Notes under the pieces: generated by a model
The model's input: only the letters and a program-made list of their open reading frames with translations
What the model was told of the DNA's origin: nothing
Database searches by the model: none
Assembly: GCA_009923445.1 (NCBI GenBank)
Contig: RFTN01000002.1
Coordinates: 38,436 to 102,435 of the forward strand
Source of the DNA: a bacterium
GTDB taxonomy: Bacteria > Patescibacteriota > Saccharimonadia > Saccharimonadales > SZUA-47
Direction of reading: 5' to 3'
DNA length: 64,000 nucleotides
Shown: in pieces, positions 11,316-46,558 of the stretch
Numbering within the stretch: position 1 is the stretch's first letter
Layout of the letters: every line of letters begins with the position of its first letter
Program-made: the position numbers and the translations under genes

Positions 11316-13003
<1,688 letters not shown>

Positions 13004-28132: not shown

Positions 28133-28218
28133 TGGTGGGCAAGGAGGGACTTGAACCCTCACAACCTTGCGATCACTGGATTTTGAGTCCAGCGCGTCTA
28201 CCATTCCGCCACTCGCCC
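28133..28218 (-). tRNA. tRNA-Leu(CAA), class II with long variable arm, CCA encoded
   Basis: I folded it by hand. Acceptor GGGCGAG/CTTGCCC, anticodon stem CTGGA/TCCAG with loop CTCAAAA, T arm GAGGG-TTCAAGT-CCCTC, 3' ACCA. Confidence 0.9.
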
Positions 28219-36909: not shown

Positions 36910-37290
36910 ATGGATAAAAAACCGAACTTACTGTGTATAGAAGACGAAAACTTTATTGGCGAACTTTATACGCGTGCACTAACCCATGCAGGGTATGACG
37001 TAAAAGTTATAGCAGATGGGGAAGCTGCATTGGCCGAATCATTAACAAACGCATACGATATTATATTGCTCGATATTATGCTGCCGAGTATGAGTGGTGT
37101 AGAAATACTACGGCGCCTAAAAGACCAATCACAAACTCCGCCACTAAAGGCTAAAATTATAATTACAACCAATTTAGACCAAGAAGAATCAACCCGCGAA
37201 AAAATTGAAAAAATGGCAGATGGCTACTTGGTTAAAGCCGAAATTACACCTCGTGAACTTGTAGCTTATTTACAGCAAATCAAACTGTAG
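36910..37290 (+). CDS. stand-alone receiver-domain response regulator (no output domain)
   Basis: LLCIEDE, DIILLDIMLPSMSGVEILRRLK, and a conserved Lys in ADGYLVKAEI. Only 126 aa. Confidence 0.85.
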   Translation: MDKKPNLLCIEDENFIGELYTRALTHAGYDVKVIADGEAALAESLTNAYDIILLDIMLPSMSGVEILRRLKDQSQTPPLKAKIIITTNLDQEESTREKIEKMADGYLVKAEITPRELVAYLQQIKL

Positions 37291-37612
37291 TTTGTGTAAT
37301 TATATCTTGTAAATTAGCCCTATAAAATACAACAAAATGCTTATGTACACGCCAACTGCTGCAGGTATATACTTAGTACAGCTATGAGGGCACTGGTGGG
37401 AATCCCAATTTTTGCACTCAAGCTTTACACTGAGTTTTAAACTCTAAAAAGCACTCTAGAGATACCAATCTCTACATATACAAGTGTCTAGTCATGAACA
37501 TGCAGCAGAACGGTTGCTATTGTTTTATCTAGCTACTCCTCAAACATAAATCCGTTCCAACTAACAGATTTAGTTGTCTATTAACTGCTACTTAAAATTT
37601 GAGGAGATGTAT

Positions 37613-37855
37613 ATGCATCAAGAGATTTATGTCACAAGTTTTTACTTTGCAAAAGGCAACACCAAAAAGAGCTATCCGCGCCGCATAGAGACCAGCGAAG
37701 GCAAACAAATAAACTTTATAGAAGAAGGCTTACGCTGTGTCGTTCAAAAAGGCCAAGAATTGATTGAAATTTTTACAATGAGTGATGGCCAGATAACTTA
37801 TCGTATTGGCCATCAGCAACGTGGAAACGAATGGTTGCTATTAAGCACGCAATAA
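37613..37855 (+). CDS. hypothetical small protein
   Basis: GAGGAG SD at 37601-37606, then ATG 37607/37613 (MHQEIYVTSF...). Confidence 0.45.
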   Translation: MHQEIYVTSFYFAKGNTKKSYPRRIETSEGKQINFIEEGLRCVVQKGQELIEIFTMSDGQITYRIGHQQRGNEWLLLSTQ

Positions 37856-37890
37856 TTTGAATAATTCTAAGTTTGTTGTATAATATAGTC

Positions 37891-38214
37891 ATGCTTTACG
37901 TACCCGAATTACCCAACCAACACTGCAAAGAAGCAGCAATAACGCAGCTTTTTTTGTACAATACAGCGTTAGACATCGAGAAAATGCTTGGGAACGGAAT
38001 TGATGCGTCAACCGGTGAGCCAATTACCGAACAACAAATTATCGGTAGACAAATGCGCCTTAACATTGCTAGCAAATACCTATCGAGCGCCGTTAGTGAA
38101 TGTATGAGTTGCCAAGTATACAAAGATAGTGATACAAATGGCTGTCCAAACGACATTAAAACAGATGATCAACAGCAGCCATTGTTTGGTTTTATACGCA
38201 CCATATTGCTCTAA
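37891..38214 (+). CDS. hypothetical small protein
   Basis: ATG 37891 lies 6 nt after TATAAT (37879-37884). The track's TTG 37873 start lies inside the promoter. Confidence 0.45.
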   Translation: MLYVPELPNQHCKEAAITQLFLYNTALDIEKMLGNGIDASTGEPITEQQIIGRQMRLNIASKYLSSAVSECMSCQVYKDSDTNGCPNDIKTDDQQQPLFGFIRTILL

Positions 38215-38228
38215 ACATAAAATGCATT

Positions 38229-38651
38229 TTACGAACGTGGCAACGGACACAGCTTAACGACTAGCGCAAGAGCATCTATGTGGGTGTATAAACCACTTGA
38301 TGCAAATTCTAATACCGCTGCTCCTACTGGGTTAACTGATGTATTGCTACTTTTAAGTAAATCTACTTTATCGTTTATATCGTTTGCAGAGGCAACACCA
38401 ATTGACCACACCTTGCTAAAATCTAGGGTTATGCGTTGCAGCGGTACAGAAACTGCAATTATAGGTATGCTTTGTTCTGGGTTTTGGGGTGTACCAATCC
38501 AGTAGGCTGCTTTATTACCGTTAAGGGTTGGGGCGGGGTATGCCTTGTCAGGTATTTTGTAGGCATTACAGTATGAGTTGAGGTCGCCAACAGCAAAACG
38601 GCGTAGTAGTGGCCTAAAATGCGGATCATATGTTTCGATGCTGTGATTCAC
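38229..38651 (-). CDS. hypothetical protein
   Basis: 140-aa ORF with no recognisable motif. Confidence 0.45.
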   Translation of the reverse strand: MNHSIETYDPHFRPLLRRFAVGDLNSYCNAYKIPDKAYPAPTLNGNKAAYWIGTPQNPEQSIPIIAVSVPLQRITLDFSKVWSIGVASANDINDKVDLLKSSNTSVNPVGAAVLEFASSGLYTHIDALALVVKLCPLPRS

Positions 38652-38744
38652 TTTAAAATTACATTACAGCAACAAATAAAATATGCAAACTATAATCTAC
38701 CGATAAAATGTGGTAAAATTGTGCGAAGTCTACCACCTAAGCAA

Positions 38745-38798
38745 GGTCCCGTCGTCTAGCGGTTAGGACATCTGGTTCTCATCCAGAAGATCGCGGGT
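38745..38798 (+). pseudogene. 5' 54 nt of tRNA-Glu(CUC) (acceptor 5' strand through the 5' half of the T arm), lacking a 3' partner
   Basis: 54/54 identical to 38919-38972. It is followed by unrelated hairpin-rich sequence instead of the T-loop. Confidence 0.8.
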
Positions 38799-38918
38799 GA
38801 AGCTTGCCGGTGGCAAGCTGCAAGGCAACCTTCCGACGAAAACTTGTTTTCGATAGCGAAGTTGCGGGGTCGCCGAAGGTGACCGAGTCTTGAGTCGAAC
38901 CTTTATAATATAAACTAT

Positions 38919-38994
38919 GGTCCCGTCGTCTAGCGGTTAGGACATCTGGTTCTCATCCAGAAGATCGCGGGTTCGAGTCCCGCCGGGATCACCA
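38919..38994 (+). tRNA. tRNA-Glu(CUC), CCA encoded
   Basis: I folded it by hand. Acceptor GGTCCCG/CGGGATC (one G-U pair), D arm GTCT-AGCGGTTA-GGAC, anticodon arm TCTGG-TTCTCAT-CCAGA, T arm GCGGG-TTCGAGT-CCCGC, ACCA. TATAAT at 38904-38909 lies 9 nt upstream. Confidence 0.9.
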
Positions 38995-39002
38995 AACTAA
39001 GA

Positions 39003-39029
39003 ATTTCACCGATAGTGTGGAATTTTTTT
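39003..39029 (+). terminator. intrinsic terminator after tRNA-Glu
   Basis: aatttcac / gtggaatt stem (one G-U pair) followed by a T7 run. Confidence 0.6.
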
Positions 39030-39130
39030 GTTTGGTCAACACTTGGCAGGCGGGACGAGAACGGTTGTGCCGGTGGCACAAGCTGGTCTCAACGCCCCTA
39101 GACAATACGTAAGGATTGACGTGGGGTTGC

Positions 39131-39145
39131 TTGGTCAAAATGAAT
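39131..39145 (+). repeat. 15-nt direct repeat ttggtcaaaatgaat (left copy)
   Basis: Identical to 44743-44757. The 8-nt core ttggtcaa also occurs at 39032-39039. Confidence 0.5.
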
Positions 39146-39168
39146 ATTTTTACATTTTGACTGCAAGG

Positions 39169-39190
39169 CGAGTCCCGCCGGGATCACCAA
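39169..39190 (+). repeat. 22-nt duplicate of the tRNA-Glu 3' end (T-loop nt 56 to CCA plus 1)
   Basis: cgagtcccgccgggatcaccaa is identical to 38974-38995. A 9-bp hairpin follows at 39209-39233. Confidence 0.8.
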
Positions 39191-39268
39191 GTTAGATAAA
39201 AGATTGAAATTAGGCTGATTTTTCCAGCCTAATCTTATTCGTGGAACACCTATAGTAGTTTTTTACTC

Positions 39269-39335
39269 ATGGTTACATAACATAATCCTTATGGTTACAT
39301 ATTGTATCTGTTAATATCTACTTATGGTTACATAT
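39269..39335 (+). promoter_or_regulatory. three direct repeats ATGGTTACATA(A/T) upstream of the Fic gene (operator/iteron-like)
   Basis: Copies at 39269-39280, 39291-39302 and 39324-39335. The last two are identical over 16 nt (cttatggttacatatt). Start-to-start spacings are 22 and 33 nt. Confidence 0.5.
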
Positions 39336-39356
39336 TCAAATAATTGATGGTACAAT

Positions 39357-40514
39357 ATGCACATTATGTTAACCATTCCCGAGCCATCATTTAAATCAAG
39401 CCTGACCGACCTAATTGTTGAGCTAGAAGGATTAAGAAATAAAAACGTATCGGGTACTGCAAAGCCATGGATATTTATTGAGCTCAAGAACTTATTCCAT
39501 ATAGTAGAAGCACTCAGCTCAGCAAGAATTGAAGGAAACCATACGACGCTCGCAGATTTTATAGACGCACAGCTTAGCCTAGACTTACAAAACGAAGAGC
39601 TAAATGAGATCTCGAACATCATTAAATGTCTAGACTTTATAGATAAGAATATCTCAACTCTGGATATAAATAAGGCATTTATACTAGAGTTGCACAAACA
39701 GGTTGTCAAAGGACTGAGTACTGCTAAAGAAGGAGATTCACGAATCGGCTCATACCGTAAAGAGCCTCGCAAGATTGCAAATTCTCAGCATGTGTTACCT
39801 CAGCCAGGTGACATAGACGATCTTATGAGGGAGTTATTAGCCTTCATAAACGAAAAAACTGAGCCTAAACTGGACCTTCTAAAGGTAGCCATCGCTCATC
39901 ACCGTTTTGTTTGGATACACCCGTTCGGCAACGGTAACGGTAGAGTCGTACGACTACTGACTTACTCCATGCTTTGCAAGCAGGGCTTTATTACAACTGG
40001 GCTAACTAGGCTCTTTAACCCTGCGGCAGTATTCTCTGGTGACAGACAAAAATACTACGATATGCTCGAAATTGCAGATATAGGTACAGACGCCGACATA
40101 CTGTCATGGTCTGAATATGTATTAAGTGGCCTACGTGACGAGGTAAAAAAATCCCAGCAGCTTACTGATGCAAAGTTTGTAAGATATAATATACTCGCTC
40201 CAACCCTTGATTGGGCTGAAGAAAAAAACATATTGAATGAACTTGAAGCAAAAGTACTACGGAGATTAGTTAAGAAGGATTCTATAAAAGCCGCAGACAT
40301 CAGAGACCTATGGCCGAGTGATTTTTCCCATGTCGTTGTATCTAAATTTTTGAGGAAACTTCGCAAGCAAAATTTCGTAAGACCACTTAAAGAAAATGGC
40401 CGTGAATATGTTCTTAAATTTACTGGCAATAAACTGACGCGTGGCATCTTGGAACAAATGGAGAGCCAAGGCATGCTACCAGTACACGTCGATGAACTGT
40501 CCAGGAGTAAGTAG
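39357..40514 (+). CDS. Fic-domain protein (AMPylase family) with an N-terminal inhibitory-helix motif and a C-terminal winged-helix-like region
   Basis: Fic motif HPFGNGNGRVVR, N-terminal SARIEG matching (S/T)xxxE(G/N). ATG 39366 is an alternative start. Confidence 0.85.
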   Translation: MHIMLTIPEPSFKSSLTDLIVELEGLRNKNVSGTAKPWIFIELKNLFHIVEALSSARIEGNHTTLADFIDAQLSLDLQNEELNEISNIIKCLDFIDKNISTLDINKAFILELHKQVVKGLSTAKEGDSRIGSYRKEPRKIANSQHVLPQPGDIDDLMRELLAFINEKTEPKLDLLKVAIAHHRFVWIHPFGNGNGRVVRLLTYSMLCKQGFITTGLTRLFNPAAVFSGDRQKYYDMLEIADIGTDADILSWSEYVLSGLRDEVKKSQQLTDAKFVRYNILAPTLDWAEEKNILNELEAKVLRRLVKKDSIKAADIRDLWPSDFSHVVVSKFLRKLRKQNFVRPLKENGREYVLKFTGNKLTRGILEQMESQGMLPVHVDELSRSK

Positions 40515-40668
40515 CAGTTCATTTCAAATCTAGATTAATTTTTGAAGTTTTACATCCAACTCACCAATCGCATCCACAAAAGTGTTCCACCCATTTCCCG
40601 GTAGGCCCACCAAACTAGATAACGGATACGAATTGACAATTATGCAATCAAATCGTATAATTCAACCA

Positions 40669-41217
40669 TCACCAAGACAGGCTACCTTGCAGAGTGCGTC
40701 TCTCAAGAAAATGCCTGTCATTTTTTTGCTCTAATTTTGTTTTCTTAGTACTTATGTAGTCTATTTTATGTACAAAGGGTTTTAGTAACTTGGAATATTT
40801 ATTCTTGTTATGTACAAGAATCTTCTTTAGCTTATTATTTTCTTCTAAGTATTCGTACAGGCACAAAAAGTCGCCATCACCACTAACAATAACTGCCTCG
40901 TCGTAGTCTTTAAACAGTCTTGCTGCGGAATGCAGGACAAGTTCTGCGTCTACATTTCCTTTGGTAGCTTTTTTACCATATTTAAAATAATGTTGTGTAG
41001 GTTTAAACACAAGTATGTAGCCAGCATTTTGAAGATAAAAATATAGCTTTTGGTTTTCGGGCATTTGTCCTATAAATAAGTATGCTTTTTCGACGTGATA
41101 CGTGTCGTTTAAAAAGCGCCTAAACTTTACGAAATCAAGCTTCCAGCCAACAGTTCTCACACCCAAATTAAGATTCTGACTATCTATAAATGCAAACGTG
41201 GAAGCGTGTTTTTTCAT
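40669..41217 (-). CDS. NYN-domain (LabA-like) putative ribonuclease
   Basis: FAFIDSQNLNLG at the N-terminus and VIVSGDGDFLCL. Very AT-rich: one 60-nt line (40741-40800) counts 15 G+C. Confidence 0.75.
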   Translation of the reverse strand: MKKHASTFAFIDSQNLNLGVRTVGWKLDFVKFRRFLNDTYHVEKAYLFIGQMPENQKLYFYLQNAGYILVFKPTQHYFKYGKKATKGNVDAELVLHSAARLFKDYDEAVIVSGDGDFLCLYEYLEENNKLKKILVHNKNKYSKLLKPFVHKIDYISTKKTKLEQKNDRHFLERRTLQGSLSW

Positions 41218-41422
41218 TACAAATAGTATCTCATAATCTTTTTCATTTTGCTGTTTTTTGTAAAGTTCGATATTCTTGGGAAATCACCAAGAAAAGCGCC
41301 TTGCTTTTGTAACGACCTCGCCCCACTATTATCAAGTTGGAATTTGACTGGATTGACACCAATTGCAAACAAAATCGATGCAAAGTCTATGGTGACTTAG
41401 AAGTTGTAAAATACGTCGCTAA

Positions 41423-42634
41423 CTAGGTATTGGCGTCTAACGAGCCGTCTACAAAAGCTAGCATTGCTACATAATTTGTTGCACGTCCTTTAGTTCCGTC
41501 ACCTAAAGAGTGCTTTTTTCCTACTGGCAAGAAAGTTAAGCCATGAAAGACGTCGGTTGGATCTAGCTTTGTATTGCTAAAGGCGCAGTTATCCATAGTG
41601 GCTGCGATGAGCGGTAACGCTTCTGTATCTGGTGGAGTTTCGGGATCAAACGAACTAGTAATTAAGTAAAGATTGTTCGGGCACAAGCCTTGCTCTGCAA
41701 GGCCAATAGGCATAGAAGCTCTCCTTTGAGCAGAGGTCATTCCGGGCATAAAGGCGCCAATACTTCTCCATGAGTCAGTTGTCGGTGGATTAGTTGCTAT
41801 AACAGACTTAATTCTGCCTGTCTCATGGAGGTTTCGTAACACTGTTAACTGCTCGGCACTAACACCTGGAATTTGTGCATTCGGAGTGCCTAAAATGTAG
41901 GCAAGCGTACCGCCTGCCGACACACCAGCAAGCACTATGTCTCGATTAGGTGCAGCTGCCATCACATTTTGCAGTGCATCAATTGCATCCTCATATGCTG
42001 TAGGGAATGTTTTGCCAACATTAGTTTTTCTATAATCAATCGCAGCTATATCAAATCCATAATCTACCATTGCGAGTATCCCTGGGCTTACCGACTTCAG
42101 CGCATCAGTATCGCCTCCTACAAAACCTCCACCATAAGCAAAAACAACTATAGGATTTTCGGATGGAGTATCTGCCTGTTTTACGGTTTTTGTGCGGTAA
42201 TCTATAGGTGACTCATAAAAGACATATTTCTGATGCTGTTCTTGACCATACCAGACAGTAGCTGGTTCTATTTTGTGATACCAAGAAGTGTAGTCTTTTT
42301 CTGCGGTAAAAAGTTCATTAGTGGTAGGCATGGGCACTATTTCAAAAGACGCTTCGATAGGTTGCGTAGTGGTTTCAGGCACGTTGATTCGATCAGCTGT
42401 GGCAGTCACTTCAACCGGCGCTTCAATCGAACTCAAGGCAGTCGTTGGCGTTGAAGGGTAGAGTGGACTAATTTCACTTTCAAACACTTCAGCCTGTTGA
42501 CGCACTTGGGTCTCACCTGCAGTTGAACTATCTAAACCACAACCTTGCAACAGCAATCCCGTTGCTATTAGCACGCTTCTAAGATGGGGTTTTCTAGGAG
42601 CGTGCAGCTGTTCAGGGCTAGGATGGTACTTCAT
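41423..42634 (-). CDS. lipoprotein alpha/beta-hydrolase (esterase/lipase, GGGF oxyanion type)
   Basis: Lipobox LLQGC, FAYGGGFVGGD, nucleophile elbow GVSAGG. Confidence 0.7.
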   Translation of the reverse strand: MKYHPSPEQLHAPRKPHLRSVLIATGLLLQGCGLDSSTAGETQVRQQAEVFESEISPLYPSTPTTALSSIEAPVEVTATADRINVPETTTQPIEASFEIVPMPTTNELFTAEKDYTSWYHKIEPATVWYGQEQHQKYVFYESPIDYRTKTVKQADTPSENPIVVFAYGGGFVGGDTDALKSVSPGILAMVDYGFDIAAIDYRKTNVGKTFPTAYEDAIDALQNVMAAAPNRDIVLAGVSAGGTLAYILGTPNAQIPGVSAEQLTVLRNLHETGRIKSVIATNPPTTDSWRSIGAFMPGMTSAQRRASMPIGLAEQGLCPNNLYLITSSFDPETPPDTEALPLIAATMDNCAFSNTKLDPTDVFHGLTFLPVGKKHSLGDGTKGRATNYVAMLAFVDGSLDANT

Positions 42635-42824
42635 ATCAATATACTAACATTTATGAAAGTTTATTTTGTATAAGCACCATAGAATGTCATGCGTAGTTCT
42701 GACATGACCTAACTTCTAATTTGCCAAGAATTTGAAGTAACATGTATGTAAGCCCCCCATTACGCACAACATGTCTCGGGTTAAGAGGCATATAATATAT
42801 ACAAAAGGAGCCCAATATATACGC

Positions 42825-43038
42825 ATGCAGGTAAACGTCACATCCAAAGATACGTAACAATGTATTGTCTGGTATTAAAAGTGGTATGACACAAACAGAA
42901 GCTGCCGACGTGTATGGTGTTAATCTAAATACAGTGAGCACATGGTGTCGTCAAGATGTTGTGGGTGGTGAGAAAAACTACCTCATACAAATAAACCAAC
43001 TAAAACGTGAACTAGATAATGCTACCGTGTCATATTGA
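42825..43038 (+). pseudogene. frameshifted/truncated IS-type transposase N-terminal HTH (OrfA-like) remnant
   Basis: TATAAT 42791-42796, AAAGGAG 42804-42810 and ATG 42825 open a 10-codon ORF. In the next frame comes ...NVLSGIKSGMTQTEAADVYGVNLNTVSTWCRQ...INQLKRELDNA*, an HTH followed by a coiled-coil start. No catalytic (DDE) part follows. Confidence 0.4.
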
Positions 43039-43069
43039 ATAGTTTCTTTGATAATTTCACTAAAAAATT

Positions 43070-44389
43070 CTAGGGAGAAGACTGAACCGTGTTGTTATAG
43101 GAGTCGCAGTCTGCACCATAAACTTTACCACTAGAGCACTTAGGATCATTGCTTACATTTCTTGGATCTTCTTGTACGAAAATATTTCCTGCAGTGTTTC
43201 TAGACAGAGAATTACCCGTGACAGTAGTGTTGTTAGACCCAGAAAGTTGAATGCCGTAAGCTGAATTACCCGTGACTGTGTTATTGGTTATTGTTCCTTT
43301 TGTTGAGACTTCGTAATAAATCCCGTTTCGTAGATTGCCCGATGCTGTATTGTTACTTATCACAATGTTTTCCGCCTGAAGATCAATCCATAGGCCATTA
43401 GCTTTATTATTTATGAACTGGTTATTCGTTATCGTAGCGCCTCTAGTATATGTGAACTTTGCTCCAGCTGCCGCAGCTGTTGTTCCTGATATGGCATTGT
43501 TGCCAGTATTATTATTTGACATTATATTGTTCTGAACAATAATACCGTGACCGTTGTTAACGTGCAGACCCATCCAATTATTTTTATCAAAAACGTTGTT
43601 CTTTACAACGGAATTGTTAGTTTGAACAGACAATCCTATAGATTCACTTTCTTGAAATGTGCTGTATTCAACAGTTACGCCGCTACTAAGCGAACTAGCA
43701 ATAATCACCATAGCTGGCTTTTGTGAAAAATCCTTTGTCGAAGCATACTTTTTAAACCCAATGCCTTGGATTTTACTTCCTCCTGCATTTGTTACAAGAA
43801 ATAGCGCAAATTGCAATTTGTTTTGCCCATCCAACCATACACTTTCACCGGGATAAGCAGCAATAGTTAATTTTTTGGATATAGTTAGGCTTATATCTGT
43901 ATAGATTCCAGCCCTTAAAACTATGGTTGATCCTGCGCTGGCACTACTAACTGCAGCCTTGAAGGAAGATGTGGAATTAACGATTATTGAGTTTGACGGT
44001 ATTGTGTAGTTTATTGTTTGAGGTGGGGCTGTAGGTTCATTAGGTCGAGGTTGAGATGGCGCAGGTTCTTGTTTTGGGCCAGTGCTTGAATCACTTGAAG
44101 GTGGGCCAGTGCTTGAATCACTTGAAGGTGGGTTAGTGCTTTTTATATCTGTGCTATCTTCTGAGGACAATGGCTGTTCGTTATCAAGATTGGGCTTAAC
44201 ATTATCTAGACTCGAAGTATCATTAGAATTATCAATTTTTTCGTAATTATTTGAGTACCTATTTAACAAGGCTAAACTTGAAGTCGCTAGGAGTGTAACG
44301 AACGTAAAAACTAAAACCAAACTAGCTATTTTGTGGCTAATGTAAAAATTTTGTAACTTTCTAATAGTATTTAAAACTGCAAATTTCAT
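43070..44389 (-). CDS. membrane-anchored right-handed parallel beta-helix repeat protein
   Basis: N-terminal TM, a Ser/Pro-rich linker, then many N-rich repeats of about 22 aa (VVKNNVFDKNNWMGLHV, IVQNNIMSNNNTGN, ITNNQFINNKANGLWI, ISNNTASGNLRNGIYY, ITNNTVTGNSAYGIQL, VTGNSLSRNTAGNIFV). Confidence 0.7.
   Translation of the reverse strand: MKFAVLNTIRKLQNFYISHKIASLVLVFTFVTLLATSSLALLNRYSNNYEKIDNSNDTSSLDNVKPNLDNEQPLSSEDSTDIKSTNPPSSDSSTGPPSSDSSTGPKQEPAPSQPRPNEPTAPPQTINYTIPSNSIIVNSTSSFKAAVSSASAGSTIVLRAGIYTDISLTISKKLTIAAYPGESVWLDGQNKLQFALFLVTNAGGSKIQGIGFKKYASTKDFSQKPAMVIIASSLSSGVTVEYSTFQESESIGLSVQTNNSVVKNNVFDKNNWMGLHVNNGHGIIVQNNIMSNNNTGNNAISGTTAAAAGAKFTYTRGATITNNQFINNKANGLWIDLQAENIVISNNTASGNLRNGIYYEVSTKGTITNNTVTGNSAYGIQLSGSNNTTVTGNSLSRNTAGNIFVQEDPRNVSNDPKCSSGKVYGADCDSYNNTVQSSP
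44076..44129. repeat. perfect 2 x 27-bp tandem repeat inside the beta-helix gene linker
   Basis: gggccagtgcttgaatcacttgaaggt at 44076-44102 and 44103-44129, with a partial third unit after. It encodes the repeated SSDSSTGPP. Confidence 0.9.
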
Positions 44390-44737
44390 TTTTTTGTTTT
44401 ATTGCTACTCCTTTTTATTACACTTTTCAAACTATAAAGTCAAGTTGGGCCAAAGTTTTTTAAATCTTTAATTGCTTTAGATTACAAAAAAAATGAATTA
44501 AACGAATAAAAAGCAAATTTGGTTCTTGAGGGTCTGGTCGCCGGGTTTTATTGAAGTTTGAACAAACTATTTTTACTATTTAACAGAAGAGCACTTTTAG
44601 TTAATCCAACAAACTAAAAATGTTTCAAATTATGTTAGTCCCCTATATCGAACTGAATATATAAGTTTGAATGATTCACATCTTTGCGATGTAATTATCG
44701 CCTAATACTAGTATAGATATTCCCCTAATCCCACCGC

Positions 44738-44757
44738 TTTGTTTGGTCAAAATGAAT
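44738..44757 (+). repeat. 20-mer tttgtttggtcaaaatgaat whose two halves recur separately next to tRNA-Glu
   Basis: The first 13 nt equal 39027-39039 and the last 15 nt equal 39131-39145. Confidence 0.5.
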
Positions 44758-44837
44758 TGGCTTACCTACGCAGCAATCTAAGCTTTATATGGCTTATGCT
44801 TGCTAAATATATTAGATAACAATAAGCTAGATACACA

Positions 44838-45167
44838 ATGTCTGAATTTAATACACCTGCAAATAATGGTCCATATATAAACGATGTCGAGCGAGCTATG
44901 CATGTTAGAGACCAGATTAGCCAGGGGGTAGATTGGCAAGAATTTGCAAATTGCAAGGGTGCTAACCCTGATATATTTTATTCTGATAATAAAAGAGACG
45001 TAGTTGATGCAAAATTTATTTGTAGCAGATGTGTCGTAAGACAAGAATGCCTGAACTATGCACTAAAGTATAACGATCCGAAAGGTGTATTTGGTATATG
45101 GGGTGAGAAAACAGAGTATGAAAGGCGTGCTATACGCGAAAGAAATTATTTTGATACTTCGCTTTAA
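44838..45167 (+). CDS. WhiB-like (Wbl) Fe-S transcription factor family protein
   Basis: Four Cys in the Wbl pattern (FANCKGANPDIFY ... C-SR-C-VVRQE-C), a GIWGE turn and a basic tail, ERRAIRERN. Confidence 0.8.
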   Translation: MSEFNTPANNGPYINDVERAMHVRDQISQGVDWQEFANCKGANPDIFYSDNKRDVVDAKFICSRCVVRQECLNYALKYNDPKGVFGIWGEKTEYERRAIRERNYFDTSL

Positions 45168-45292: not shown

Positions 45293-46558
45293 ATGGGTCT
45301 ATTCAGCGCCAAATCAAAACCTAAAAAAACGAGCGCACTCGCAAGCAGCCTTCAAAGCGAGAAAATTAAGAGTGACATAATTTTAAGTGCTATTGACGAC
45401 TGTGTCGTGTACATTGATACTTCTGGGGTTATATATCTTTTTAACCCCGCAGCGTCTAAGCTGACCGGCTGGCTTTCTGGTGAAGCAATTGGCGTCGATT
45501 ACAGGTCTGTAATTACATTAATTGATGAAAAAGGCGTGCCCATTGCAAATGATTTACATCCATTCACCGTTGTACTGATGCAAAAAACACCAATCCGTTC
45601 AGATAATGCCATAATAAAAAACAGAAATGGAGCATCGATATCAATTGATATGACAGTATCGCCGCTGTTTGATGCAAACGAGCAATTACAAGGTGCAGTA
45701 AGCGTTATTCGTGATGTAACCGAACAGCGACGGGCCGAAAAACAACGCGCTGAGTTTATTAGTACAGCGAGTCATGAAATGCGCACGCCAGTGGCTGCAA
45801 TTGAAGGTTACTTAGCACTGGCACTCAACGACAAAGTGAGTAAAATCGACGATAAGGCACGCAGTTTTCTTACTAAGGCACACGAAAGCACTCAGCATCT
45901 CGGTAAATTATTTCAAGATTTATTAACAAGCGCCAAAGCCGAGGACGGTCGCTTAACAAGCCACCCTATAGCAGTAGAAATGAGTGAGTTTGTAGAAAAA
46001 CTAACCCAAGACCTTAAATTTGTTGCCGAAAAGAAAAATCTTCAATTAGAGTGTACAATAGGCAGTCCATCGGGCTTTACCGATGCCAGCAAAGTAATAA
46101 AACCACTTTACTATGTGCAGGCTGACCCAGATAGGCTGCGAGAAGTCATAACAAACCTGTTTGATAACGCAGTTAAATACACCGAAACTGGAAAAATAAC
46201 TATAAGTTTGTCGGGTGACGATAAAGTGGTGCAGTTCAGAATACGCGACACCGGGCCAGGAATACCTATAGAAGACCAGCCGCATTTGTTTCAAAAGTTT
46301 TACAGGGTAGACAACTCGGCAACGCGTACCATTGGCGGCACCGGTCTCGGCTTGTTCATTACTAAGAAGATTATCGAGCTATACAGCGGTCGTATTTGGG
46401 TTGAAAGTACGCCTGGGCTAGGTAGTACGTTTATAATAAACCTTCCGCGAATTACAAGTGAAAGAGCACGACAGCTACAAAAAGAAGAAGATTCAAGACC
46501 GGCAGGCAGCGTTTACACACAAAATACTGCACCTAGTAACACGGGCGTGATACAATAA
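45293..46558 (+). CDS. cytoplasmic PAS-domain sensor histidine kinase
   Basis: GGAG SD, PAS region, H-box FISTASHEMRTPVAAIEGY, NLFDNAVKYT, DTGPGIP, GGTGLGLFITKK. Confidence 0.85.
   Translation: MGLFSAKSKPKKTSALASSLQSEKIKSDIILSAIDDCVVYIDTSGVIYLFNPAASKLTGWLSGEAIGVDYRSVITLIDEKGVPIANDLHPFTVVLMQKTPIRSDNAIIKNRNGASISIDMTVSPLFDANEQLQGAVSVIRDVTEQRRAEKQRAEFISTASHEMRTPVAAIEGYLALALNDKVSKIDDKARSFLTKAHESTQHLGKLFQDLLTSAKAEDGRLTSHPIAVEMSEFVEKLTQDLKFVAEKKNLQLECTIGSPSGFTDASKVIKPLYYVQADPDRLREVITNLFDNAVKYTETGKITISLSGDDKVVQFRIRDTGPGIPIEDQPHLFQKFYRVDNSATRTIGGTGLGLFITKKIIELYSGRIWVESTPGLGSTFIINLPRITSERARQLQKEEDSRPAGSVYTQNTAPSNTGVIQ

Follow-up and report, generated by a model that had tools for sequence, protein, structure and literature searches.

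A tRNA-Glu(CUC) gene probably flanked by two small recombinase-less insertions, beside a separate low-GC accessory block, in a Saccharimonadales genome

In the 64,000-nucleotide stretch of DNA analysed here (the window), the tRNA-Glu(CUC) gene is on balance best explained as flanked by two small insertions without a recombinase, each of which splits the T-loop and leaves an intact copy of the gene. Within this explanation, the 5.6-kb low-GC block past the native trailer is probably a separate product of gene turnover in a hot spot of variable genes, and the 20-mer at its far end is probably an element residue, with an integrase-type att site rejected. The first-pass annotation had read the locus as a tRNA-adjacent accessory segment with short direct repeats as its att-like ends. 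The features are listed in Table 1.

Table 1. Features of the tRNA-Glu locus and the adjoining variable region (positions in the window)
Feature	Position	Strand	Basis
Displaced 5′ fragment of tRNA-Glu, positions 1-54, ending G53-T54	38745-38798	+	Exact copy of 38919-38972
Module A, ~88-nt structured RNA in T-loop of displaced 5′ fragment	38797-38884	+	Covariance model R1
Spacer carried with module A	38885-38918	+	Sequence inspection
Intact tRNA-Glu(CUC)	38919-38994	+	ARAGORN; Rfam tRNA, 65.5 bits
Terminator-like hairpin and T-run from downstream insertion	38996-39029	+	TTCAC..GTGGAA then T7, sequence inspection
Copy 1 (39027-39039), start of an inverted, degenerate tRNA 3′ end	39027-39063	+	Reverse-complement comparison
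Three hairpins of type C module	39065-39161	+	RNA folding
Type C hairpin 1 (TTGTGCC-GGT-GGCACAA)	39065-39081	+	
Type C hairpin 2	39090-39129	+	
Type C hairpin 3 (GTCAAAATG..CATTTTGAC)	39134-39161	+	
TGCAAGG (degenerate 5′ T-stem), then displaced tRNA-Glu 3′ fragment, C56 to CCAA	39162-39190	+	Fragment 39169-39190 = 38974-38995
Native tRNA trailer with original terminator (39209-39233)	39191-39265	+	Terminator scan
Lineage-specific accessory block	39266-44737		Pfam, composition, relatives
Predicted SoFic-like Fic protein	39357-40514	+	Pfam Fic; PADLOC SoFic, 5.5e-46
NYN nuclease	40669-41217	-	Pfam
Alpha/beta hydrolase	41423-42634	-	Pfam
57-aa HTH fragment	42865-43038	+	Pfam
Beta-helix protein	43070-44389	-	Pfam
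Right-hand 20-mer TTTGTTTGGTCAAAATGAAT	44738-44757	+	Isolated match to two internal pieces of downstream insertion
WhiB-family gene	44838-45167	+	Pfam WhiB

Two exact repeats at the tRNA-Glu gene, absent from the first-pass annotation, are larger than those it recorded: 54 nt of the tRNA 5′ part and 22 nt from the T-loop to CCAA. The displaced 5′ fragment scored 28.2 bits as a tRNA in Rfam, under the threshold of 29, and adjoins a native-type promoter region on its upstream side. There is a promoter-like site at 38653-38682. In the relative L169, it is the displaced 5′ copy and not the intact gene that is preceded by the conserved Saccharimonadales tRNA promoter motif cctgttatgata. Module A consists, in order, of GUGAA, hairpin 1 (GCUUGCC-GGU-GGCAAGC), GCAAGG, the long hairpin 2, GGG and hairpin 3 (GGUCGCC-GAA-GGUGACC); the covariance model matched it at 94.1 bits (E = 1.5e-22), the sole match in the window. 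At its junction one nucleotide, T55, is absent, a detail that sits poorly with our overall explanation. The spacer starts with (C)GAGTC, left over from a T-loop, and also holds TTGAGTCGAACC, a short part of the T-arm in inverted orientation, and a TATAAT box (38904-38909) 9 nt upstream of the intact gene; it is approximately 90% identical between the window and L169, and module A is followed by the same arrangement in L115, L105, L108, L116, L118 and L101. The upstream insertion (38797-38972) is thus read, with the same measured preference as the explanation to which it belongs, as module A, the TATAAT spacer and a second copy of tRNA positions 1-54; insertion of that copy would have stranded the original 5′ part, its T-loop now holding the module, behind the old promoter.

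The downstream insertion measures 195 bp and is equally well placed at 38974-39168 or 38996-39190. Besides a second C56-CCAA copy, it carries a terminator of its own, the tRNA 3′ end in inverted, degenerate form, and three hairpins; insertion of the second copy would have displaced the original 3′ end ahead of the original terminator. Its terminator-like hairpin was not called by the consensus terminator scan and is missing from L169, in which the tRNA runs directly into the other terminator. Copy 1 of the reported repeat is the start of the inverted tRNA 3′ end, TTGGTCA..GGCGGGACGAGAAC, where the perfect reverse complement would read TTGGTGATCCCGGCGGGACTCGAAC: GGCGGGACGAGAAC agrees with the reverse-complemented T-arm at 12 of 14 positions, and GTTTGGT pairs with ACCAAAC across the terminator. 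An inverted tRNA-end copy was present in 32 of 40 members of the downstream-unit family, with a mean score of 11.0 versus 5.8 for shuffled queries. Copy 2 (39131-39145) is the 5′ arm of the third type C hairpin, which has 9 bp. Folding of 39024-39192 gave a z-score of -4.46, and none of 200 shuffles folded equally well. Type C homologues follow tRNA-Glu in L043 and L015 and also tRNA-Leu, the other tRNA in the window, which has a downstream unit of the same kind.

L169 provides the empty site. Its upstream unit is 94% identical over 257 nt, the 195-bp unit is missing, and the tRNA is joined directly to the trailer, so that the bases equivalent to 39169-39190 form the 3′ end of the tRNA itself and those aligning with 39191-39265 (82% identity) follow directly. 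The difference is a 195-bp indel with a 22-bp duplication, in place of the 91-nt insert with an 8-bp duplication that had been proposed.

The repeats that first drew attention to the locus are real. The 8-mer TTGGTCAA occurs at 39032, 39131 and 44743, as annotated; the whole window holds six occurrences against 2.5 ± 1.6 expected, a number reached in 3 of 100 shuffles. The annotated 13-nt match (39027-39039 with 44738-44750) and 15-nt match (39131-39145 with 44743-44757) are exact, and the copy 2 match is longer than had been stated (39127-39145 with 44739-44757, 18/19). Set against shuffled sequence, the repeats have moderate support, with the qualification that they were judged post hoc: an exact match of at least 15 nt between the 206-nt tRNA trailer and the next 10 kb arose in 1 of 300 dinucleotide shuffles, and one between this trailer and the remaining window in 2 of 60.

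For the origin of the 20-mer we infer one of two histories, decay of a second element or coincidence. Most likely it would be the remnant of a second downstream element whose interior was lost by deletion between two TTGGTCAA repeats; the earlier suggestion that it has the sequence expected after recombination between copies 1 and 2 is retained as viable for the third copy. A chance match, sharing no history with the tRNA-proximal sequences, is a distinct possibility, though one to which we give rather less than even weight. It agrees with the 2 in 60 frequency across the whole window, the post hoc detection of the pattern in AT-rich DNA, the lack of further similarity to the tRNA or the downstream insertion on either side of the 20-mer, and an inverted repeat at the block ends that is itself no better than chance (91 of 300 shuffles). 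It is opposed by the 1 in 300 frequency for the adjacent 10 kb, by the extension of the match to 18/19, by the fact that the 20-mer joins exactly those two pieces that the TTGGTCAA repeat separates, and by its opening with a T-run and the TTTGGTCA motif that marks element starts. As regards a decayed element, the match is only moderately significant and nothing else of a second element is recognisable nearby; a residue so old that everything else has gone should not retain 20 perfect bases, unless deletions account for what was lost.

As for the origin of the two tRNA-flanking units, we propose that they would arise by recombination within tRNA sequence. A short segment resembling the tRNA, with the module lying within it, would pair with the gene, and a single crossover would integrate it, by analogy with tRNA-targeting integrative elements; the enzymes would be supplied in trans. 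Against this proposal, the units have no linked recombinase, reverse transcriptase or nuclease, and neither a free nor a circular form was observed. Both tRNA copies of a lineage share lineage-specific D-loop differences, while the module and spacer are nearly identical between lineages, so a duplication made from the target, or gene conversion, fits better than a replacement tRNA part borne by the element. All five assemblies of the source population are identical across 36910-45167 and therefore offer no polymorphism supporting mobility at the locus.

A metagenome scan recovered at least 120 stretches with module A, and 127 copies were analysed. An intact tRNA lies 68-87 nt upstream in 41 of these copies, 122-180 nt downstream in 39 and on both sides in 6; the neighbouring tRNAs are all on the same strand and represent 14 amino-acid families. 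That module A is genuinely a structured RNA, encoded on the tRNA strand, is shown by its covariation: of 31 pairs in the alignment of 113 sequences, 23 have compensatory changes, one G.U pair is retained in 103 sequences, helices 1 and 2 are paired at 98.8% and 94.6%, and the covariation score was reached by none of 500 shuffles. This conservation suggests a function beyond that of passive DNA, a point against our preferred explanation. The duplicated tRNA part, exact in most cases, is either the last 21-22 nt or runs from position 1 to 17, 24-25, 29, 37-38 or 50-55, and in most members the interrupted tRNA copy is cut off at its 5′ or 3′ end. Several observations are signs of gain and loss: the presence/absence difference between L012 and L014, which have identical tRNAs, nested copies in L105 and L189, tandem copies in L184, a twice-interrupted pseudo-copy in L141, and near-identical module and spacer sequences in lineages whose neighbouring proteins are only 57-62% identical. 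In L097, L160, L117, L158, L167 and L193, cargo genes lie between the tRNA end and a short repeat of it, followed by a terminator and an element, the same layout that is proposed for the right-hand 20-mer. Module A has no match in Rfam 15, and full-text literature searching found no description of it; small structured elements that split tRNA genes and leave an intact copy, the 195-bp insertion among them, constitute a widespread, apparently undescribed family.

Mobility at the RNA level is an unlikely but coherent alternative: module A, and perhaps other types, would be intron-like, reverse-spliced or ligated into exposed tRNA or hairpin loops, and partial cDNA would be fixed beside the parent gene. 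This would account for duplications that begin at +1 or end at the mature CCA, and for the inverted copies as snap-back products, the sense, antisense, sense order resembling fold-back synthesis. Selection on the sense-RNA structure, with its conserved G.U pairs, is in agreement, as are insertion points in single-stranded loops of the tRNA (D-loop, anticodon loop and T-loop; positions 17, 24-25, 37-38 and 54), at the module's own junction (the nested copies) and in loops of unrelated hairpins, and the contrast between lineage-specific tRNA copies and near-identical modules. Against it, DNA-level signals travel with the units (the TATAAT spacer and a terminator unlike the native one), no reverse transcriptase or ligase is linked, Rfam ribozyme and intron models give no match, and none of the 127 copies is a complete intron-containing tRNA without an intact neighbour; duplications of tRNA ends are equally expected for any gene-restoring element.

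We think it slightly less probable still that the units are not selfish and belong to the host, as RNA elements within the tRNA transcription units of Saccharimonadales and other CPR bacteria. They would then be passed on vertically and kept alike by gene conversion, and could, for example, act as leaders or trailers in which an antisense segment pairs with the 3′ half of the tRNA to control processing or read-through. Both tRNAs in the window have a unit, RNA-level structure is strongly conserved, the units always lie on the tRNA strand at fixed distances, and the antisense segment could pair with the tRNA 3′ end or the displaced fragment. Yet presence varies among relatives with the same tRNA (L169 versus the window as well as L012 versus L014), both the module type (A, B, C) and the insertion position at the same tRNA-Glu gene differ among lineages, nested, tandem and tRNA-remote copies occur, and many relatives have no such unit.

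The accessory block itself is compositionally foreign. Both spot counts in the first-pass annotation (G+C of 15/60 at 40741-40800 and 30/60 at 11461-11520) are exact, and systematically the segment 39191-44737 has a GC content of 38.8% versus 42.8 ± 1.35% for the other 5.5-kb windows of the stretch, none of which is as low; its tetranucleotide distance of 0.20 is the largest, against a maximum of 0.165 elsewhere. The block is absent from L169, L007 and L008, with L169 the sole informative relative for this absence: it has the same tRNA-Glu cassette and trailer, and 1.1 kb of unrelated DNA replaces Fic through WhiB. With its SoFic-type Fic, NYN and HTH-fragment genes, the segment is thus accessory and tRNA-adjacent, as annotated. 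The distance between tRNA-Glu and the PAS kinase ranges from 0.1 to 4.9 kb across 29 Saccharimonadales loci, with the tRNA in either orientation. WhiB homologues were limited to an identical protein and one at 53% identity, and L007, L008 and L169 have no WhiB gene upstream of the kinase; because this gene is lineage-specific at the locus, the variable region probably reaches as far as the PAS kinase at 45293.

That the block is a genomic island integrated site-specifically beside the tRNA, with the 13- to 20-nt repeats as attL/attR cores, is improbable. Direct repeats do bracket a deviant block beside a tRNA that is missing from L169, and related metagenomic loci have cargo genes between 9-10-nt direct repeats of the tRNA 3′ end. 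But copies 1 and 2 both lie inside the 195-bp insertion, itself missing from L169, and the trailer and terminator conserved there separate this insertion from the block. The displaced fragment is found 174 nt from the tRNA instead of at the block's far end, and whereas the repeats at the cargo loci are tRNA 3′ ends, no tRNA fragment lies near 44.7 kb. No integrase or transposase gene was found by Pfam, nor a recombinase gene at the far end, and the flanks of the three copies share nothing past 13, 15 or 19 nt.

It is very improbable that the outer pieces (38745-38798 and 39169-39190) form a functional tRNA-Glu with a 370-nt intron containing another tRNA-Glu: each is an exact copy, together they make a whole tRNA except for T55, and they are flanked by a native-type promoter and the native terminator, but T55 is absent, neither a group I nor a group II intron is matched in Rfam at E <= 1, the 5′ piece occurs in L169 without a separate 3′ piece, and the interrupted copy is truncated in most family members.

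Our preferred explanation, two recombinase-less insertions, can be compared with several known systems. A T-loop sublocation of tRNA-targeting integration was reportedly described by Williams in 2002. Like tRNA-targeting integrative elements and genomic islands of the tyrosine-integrase type (Islander database, PMC4383910; review, PMC9897764), the units split a tRNA gene while the inserted DNA restores an intact one; the displaced fragment is an exact direct repeat at the other end, the junction lies in the T-loop (in the anticodon loop of other members), and cargo genes may lie between tRNA and fragment (L097, L160). Unlike them, the units span 175-200 bp, encode no integrase or other protein, and each carry a conserved structured RNA exactly at the junction; the downstream type holds an inverted tRNA 3′ end, some units interrupt the D-loop, and 5′-restoring and 3′-restoring versions occur on one gene. 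MITEs and CIME-type att-flanked remnants of integrative elements, as non-autonomous derivatives of mobile elements, are likewise small, non-coding, multi-copy, nested or in tandem, and presumably trans-dependent. The module differs in having no terminal inverted repeats and a structure conserved on the RNA of one strand, and, in place of a short fixed target duplication, of which the empty site has none, 17-55 nt or 21-22 nt of the tRNA is duplicated.

Disrupted tRNA genes of Archaea (non-canonical introns, split and permuted genes), for which integration of mobile elements has been modelled (Sugahara et al. 2012, PMC3293823), share interruptions in the D-loop, anticodon loop and T-loop, fragments beside full genes and a proposed link to mobile DNA. 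The hosts here are bacteria (Saccharimonadales/CPR), and because an intact uninterrupted gene always adjoins the interrupted copy, nothing indicates that the latter is used. Group I introns in the anticodon loop of bacterial tRNA genes (bioRxiv 10.1101/2020.01.27.920355) are also structured RNAs in a tRNA gene, with U before the insertion and G near the 3′ end; at 88 nt, module A is far under the group I core size, has no match to Rfam Intron_gpI at E <= 1, also occupies the T-loop or D-loop, lacks one exon nucleotide and usually has truncated exons. SoFic is a single-gene anti-phage defence protein with a Fic domain, modelled in PADLOC. The product of the Fic gene in the block matches this profile over residues 44-352, and on that basis is predicted to be SoFic-like; the gene belongs to the variable block as cargo and forms no part of the tRNA-flanking units.

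The tRNA-Glu(CUC) gene of the window is flanked, within the same 450 nt, by two further pieces of its own sequence. Both are exact and larger than the short repeats noticed in the first-pass annotation, which had missed them, and both were recovered by a repeat search. Together, the outer pieces make up the whole tRNA minus T55, and the locus reads as a tRNA gene whose T-loop is split by 370 nt holding a complete second copy of the same tRNA. Two insertions are present in this one gene, an upstream unit carrying a structured RNA (module A) and a 195-bp downstream unit. In each case an intact gene is kept and an exact fragment is displaced, and for the downstream unit a relative provides the empty site. 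The families to which the two units belong are widespread, with gain and loss between relatives.

Coordinates of the tRNA-associated units and related features in the window and in related metagenomic or assembly loci (L numbers)
Feature	Sequence	Position	Strand	Remarks
5' tRNA-Glu fragment	window	38745-38798	+	first 54 nt of the tRNA, exact repeat
Module A	window	38797-38884	+	88 nt; between 5' fragment and intact tRNA
Spacer	window	directly after module A	+	34 nt, with TATAAT
Intact tRNA-Glu(CUC)	window	38919-38994	+	tRNA-gene prediction and Rfam
Terminator-like hairpin and T-run	window	38996-39029	+	directly after the tRNA
Inverted degenerate copy of tRNA 3' end	window	after the T-run	+	TTTGGTCAA..GGCGGGACGAGAAC; 12/14 against reverse complement of T-arm
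Three hairpins	window	39065-39081, 39090-39129, 39134-39161	+	
TGCAAGG, degenerate 5' T-stem	window	before 39169	+	followed by the 22-nt tRNA fragment
3' tRNA-Glu fragment	window	39169-39190	+	last 22 nt (C56 to CCAA), exact repeat
Terminator in native trailer	window	39209-39233	+	terminator scan
Fic protein	window	39357-40514	+	PADLOC SoFic 5.5e-46, residues 44-352; Pfam Fic 7.7e-19
Second trailing unit	window	28132-27939	minus	behind tRNA-Leu(CAA) (28133-28218, minus); in order: terminator, inverted T-arm piece (ACTTGAAC), GACAA, CGT-loop hairpin, GGCCGCCCTTTAGCC, two more hairpins, degenerate fragment, good tRNA 3' fragment (GTCAAGTCCCTCCTTGCCCAC, 27959-27939)
Type B module	L019	2958-3120		downstream of tRNA-Glu
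Type B module	L024	78-240		downstream of tRNA-Glu
Type B module	L033	9140-9298		downstream of tRNA-Glu
Type B module	L023, L031, L034			downstream of tRNA-Glu
Module A in hairpin loop	L155	9623-9760		12-bp hairpin (GTCATCCCGAGC / GCTCGGGATGAC), away from tRNA
Module A tandem array	L113	1259-1500		spacers ~42 nt, away from tRNA
Module A tandem array	L192	504-700		spacers ~42 nt, away from tRNA
Cargo next to tRNA-Lys	L097	1055-3100 (oriented)	minus	hydrolase and racemase-like protein
Cargo next to tRNA-Lys	L160	5338-6020 (oriented)	minus	99-aa protein

The downstream insertion was delimited by comparison with L169, part of a 430-kb metagenomic contig syntenic with the window (response regulator 58%, PAS kinase 62% and RluB 50% identical in protein sequence). 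The 5' fragment, structured insert, spacer and intact tRNA-Glu are all present in L169, with 94% nucleotide identity over 257 nt, and the CCAA of its tRNA directly joins the sequence that in the window comes after the 3' fragment (39191-39265, 82% identity). Relative to L169, the window carries a 195-bp insertion together with a 22-bp duplication of the tRNA end. In the empty site the native trailer directly follows the tRNA 3' end, and L169 lacks 195 bp, not 99 bp, which rules out the earlier reading of a 91-nt insert with an 8-bp duplication. Terminal inverted repeats of the 91-nt insert were likewise discounted, its ends CACTTGGCAGG and CGTGGGGTTGC not being complementary. The equivalent piece is bordered on both sides by TTGGCT in the related locus L043 and by TTGG in L015, and may represent a sub-element.

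The segment consisting of 5' fragment, module A, spacer, tRNA and trailer (38745-39265; L169 5346-5756, minus strand) is 82-94% identical between the two lineages, while the flanking proteins are only 57-62% identical, and this cassette suggests horizontal exchange or strong homogenisation between them. Differences in the D-loop are lineage-specific and common to both tRNA copies within the window and within L169, whereas module and spacer hardly differ from one lineage to the other. Target-derived duplication or gene conversion therefore fits better than a replacement part borne by the element.

Within the downstream unit, the first bases of the inverted copy (TTTGGTCAA..) pair with ACCAAAC across the terminator. 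The whole unit folds far better than its shuffles (z-score -4.46); in the predicted fold, the inverted copy pairs with the 22-nt fragment and so closes the structure. Many relatives show the same layout behind tRNA-Glu with three different internal modules, designated types A, B and C. The unit behind tRNA-Leu shares with the tRNA-Glu element of L043 a core of GAACGACAA, a hairpin and GGCCGCCCTTTAGCC. Type B occupies the same slot, between terminator and tRNA-Glu 3' fragment, and comprises GCGAAGCGGGT, a GGTGC-TTG-GCACC hairpin and a GCGC-GAAG-GCGC hairpin in which compensatory changes are visible. The possibility that types B and C are divergent forms of module A was rejected, since R1, the covariance model built for module A, finds neither; they are taken as separate families.

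This anatomy accounts for two of the three short repeats that had been proposed as att-like ends of an accessory island. The 8-mer TTGGTCAA does occur at 39032, 39131 and 44743 (copies 1 to 3), six times in the window in all against 2.5 expected, a number reached by 3/100 shuffles. Copies 1 and 2 both lie inside the 195-bp insertion: the inverted tRNA end begins with copy 1, and copy 2 forms the 5' arm of the third hairpin, a perfect 9-bp helix. The 8-mer is absent from the 7.5 kb of L169 examined. The 13-nt and 15-nt matches of the right-hand 20-mer (44738-44757) to the surroundings of these two copies are exact as described, and the copy-2 match runs further, to 18/19 positions (39127-39145 versus 44739-44757). 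An exact 15-mer shared between the 206-nt trailer and the next 10 kb arose in 1/300 dinucleotide shuffles, and the same test on the rest of the window gave 2/60; the significance is moderate, for a pattern noticed post hoc. A segment that is accessory and tRNA-associated stands, but its short repeats do not mark island ends and are explained as by-products of a small insertion flanking the tRNA.

The 20-mer itself opens with the T-run and TTTGGTCA motif that starts these elements and continues with the arm of hairpin 3, precisely the sequence expected if such an element had suffered a deletion between its two TTGGTCAA repeats. A second element on the far side of the cargo is also a common layout in cargo-bearing loci. 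Nothing else of an element survives at this site, and the statistics allow a chance match. A decayed element copy is only slightly ahead of that explanation.

The upstream insertion is defined by module A. A search pattern derived from four module copies matched at least 120 metagenomic stretches, and the first hairpin was a perfect 7-bp helix in 116 of 132 pattern matches among those listed. Compensatory changes were evident in the homologue of locus L012, and an alignment of 113 distinct copies demonstrated double changes in 23 of 31 predicted pairs. Helix 1 was 98.8% and helix 2 94.6% paired, and the covariation score was reached by no shuffle. For helix 3, the columns used in R1 and in the shuffle-tested score lie one register off those of RNAalifold and are 32% paired; the valid register is that of RNAalifold (pairs 83-100 to 87-96), which shows GC/CG, UA/CG and CG/UA exchanges and a conserved G.U. 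One pair is G.U in 103/113 sequences, and G.U is common elsewhere while A.C is rare, which indicates RNA-level selection in the direction of the tRNA. R1 scored 94.1 bits on the window (E = 1.5e-22, 38791-38890), a match by construction because the window sequence is in the seed; the independent support is therefore the covariation over the 113 sequences.

Only tRNA models of Rfam 15 matched in the 8.5-kb window region, in six module-bearing loci and in twelve loci with the module not beside a tRNA. Module and spacer had no match in phage or plasmid collections. The first pattern gave ten matches in viral contigs, all in coding-like DNA and none with an intact hairpin, and these were dismissed as chance. 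Full-text literature searches yielded no description of these units, which is weak evidence of novelty as most subscription journals were not covered. Module A is an abundant family with strong covariation and no Rfam family, and is apparently undescribed.

We then placed 127 copies, among the matches listed, relative to tRNA genes. An intact tRNA ended 68-87 nt upstream of the module in 41 copies and started 122-180 nt downstream in 39, with both arrangements in six; most of the remaining copies lie at contig ends. In the window, with a 5' fragment reaching to 38798 and an intact tRNA that begins 122 nt after the module start, the arrangement is of the same kind as in 86/127 copies. Among the copies listed, module and tRNA always share a strand, and 14 amino-acid families are represented among the tRNAs. 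When the tRNA lies upstream, its last 21-22 nt are repeated exactly just after the module; when it lies downstream, an exact repeat runs from position 1 to 17, 24-25, 29, 37-38 or 50-55 and ends at the module. These end positions fall in or beside the D-loop, anticodon loop and T-loop.

Other configurations were also observed. A module sits inside the junction of another in L105 and L189, a pseudo-copy holds two modules in L141, and units are in tandem in L184. Module copies also occur in loops of unrelated hairpins, as in L155; no known RNA gene was found by Rfam at the sites in L113, L192 and L155. In six loci (L097, L160, L158, L167, L193 and L117), protein-coding cargo separates the tRNA 3' end from a 6-10-nt repeat of it, beyond which follow terminator, inverted copy, module and fragment. 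In L097 and L160, direct repeats of 9-10 nt from the tRNA 3' end (CCCTCCAAG and TGGCCCTCCA) stand on either side of the cargo; the one on the right runs into terminator, inverted copy and module.

The 5.6-kb block of the window, from the Fic gene to the beta-helix gene, is accessory by composition, content and absence from L169. Its GC content (39191-44737) is 38.8%, the lowest of all 5.5-kb windows (42.8 +/- 1.35% in the others), and its tetranucleotide distance is the largest in the window. These systematic measurements agree with the deviation proposed in the first-pass annotation, whose two GC spot counts were both right. Besides the Fic protein, a SoFic-like defence protein by profile, Pfam identified NYN, a hydrolase, a beta-helix protein and a 57-aa HTH fragment. 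The NYN-domain nuclease gene is convergent with the Fic gene (39357-41217) and gives weak PADLOC NYN and HEC-09 matches; a small defence island is a possible reading of the block. Just upstream of the SoFic-like gene, three direct repeats (T/C)TATGGTTACATA at 39264-39336, spaced 22 and 33 nt, overlap a promoter-like site with an extended -10 (39327-39356) and look like an operator array for a regulator. The beta-helix gene contains a perfect 27-nt tandem duplication (44075-44128) in its low-complexity, Ser/Pro-rich N-terminal part.

The block genes are absent from L169, L007 and L008, all distant relatives, and WhiB is also absent from L007 (kinase 80% identical) and L008. Where the window has Fic through WhiB between trailer and kinase, L169 has an unrelated AT-rich stretch of 1.1 kb. 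The left boundary of the block relative to L169 is at ~39266, past the native terminator. In this comparison, the native trailer comes to lie between the repeats and the block. An intact tRNA does stand at one end, but 271 nt intervene, comprising the 195-bp insertion and then the native trailer. No 3' tRNA fragment was found at the far end, the sole one preceding the block; the best local alignments of the tRNA to 44390-44840 scored 18 on the tRNA strand and 14 in reverse, both at background level. Neither a tRNA fragment nor a further element remnant was found around 44.7 kb, close to the HTH fragment or within the L169 spacer, and Pfam identified no recombinase or integrase in the block. 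Because a tRNA fragment at the far end and a recombinase are both missing, the block fails as an integrase-type island. A candidate terminal inverted repeat (39237-39262 versus 44703-44729, 20/26) was dropped, as 91/300 shuffles were as good. A search for an empty site through WhiB homologues returned only the identical protein and one at 53% identity.

Orthologues of the PAS histidine kinase (45293-46558 in the window) assign the lineage to Saccharimonadales. Across related loci, tRNA-Glu lies upstream of this kinase in 29 of 38; its anticodon is CUC in 28 of them and UUC in L035. The tRNA and the kinase are 0.1 to 4.9 kb apart, the intervening genes vary, and the tRNA has the orientation of the kinase in six loci and the opposite one in 23. 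This interval is a hot spot of gene turnover. The inverted tRNA 3'-end copies of trailing units could mediate such inversions of the tRNA. Three small ORFs between response regulator and tRNA (93, 113 and 140 aa; 37574-38651) have no Pfam or PADLOC family and may also be part of the variable region; the 93-aa ORF has distant copies in L009 and L029 (31-39% identity). Proteins identical to those of the window are confined to near-identical assemblies, and five assemblies with identical proteins, searched for polymorphism, were 100% identical over 36910-45167. Of two Logan contigs, L006 breaks in the tRNA repeat and L004 in the 27-nt tandem repeat, inside which it begins at window position 44103; an assembly artefact fits these breaks better than excision.

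The locus is more interesting than the first-pass annotation suggested, exposing an abundant and apparently undescribed structured RNA family tied to partial tRNA duplications. If the interpretation is correct, tRNA genes of Saccharimonadales, and probably those of CPR bacteria more widely, are routine targets of very small non-coding elements, which restore the gene that they interrupt. Such units would give sub-threshold tRNA-like matches and might cause short-read assemblies to break where tRNA parts are repeated, the probable explanation of the L006 break; direct and inverted tRNA-end copies could drive the gene turnover and tRNA inversions observed at this locus across the order. The L169 empty site shifted the boundaries and altered the reading of the locus; before short repeats beside a tRNA are taken for island ends, such a site from a relative is needed.

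Regarding mechanism, the fixed position of module A at tRNA loop junctions points to an RNA-protein or RNA-only activity. In the best-supported reading, the units would arise when the gene recombines, within its tRNA sequence, with a short tRNA-like segment into which a module is set, the enzymes acting in trans. The main rival is an RNA-level mechanism fixed through cDNA, in which a ~90-nt RNA enters exposed loops of mature tRNAs, other hairpins and its own copies; we consider it improbable. The module would then be fixed by partial cDNA copies recombining beside the parent gene, with an intact tRNA always surviving next to the interrupted pseudo-copy, a route to which we likewise give a low probability. 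Two observations point towards something less ordinary than recombination: the RNA-level selection on the module, together with insertion sites that are single-stranded in RNA, and tRNA copies that are lineage-specific beside a module and spacer nearly identical across lineages. It is similarly doubtful that module A and its relatives form a new class of bacterial retro-mobile, intron-like elements in CPR with no known ribozyme or protein family attached. A group I intron was rejected, as Intron_gpI had no match (E <= 1 in the 8.5-kb scan, E <= 5 in six loci) and T55 is missing between 38798 and 39169. Hammerhead and HDV-like readings of module A were rejected as well, with no matching model and core motifs that do not fit.

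Integrative elements that target tRNA genes restore the gene, displace a fragment of it, place the junction in a tRNA loop and supply their own promoter or terminator (PMC4383910, PMC9897764). The units described here have the same layout, and it is for this reason that recombination within the tRNA is the best-supported reading.
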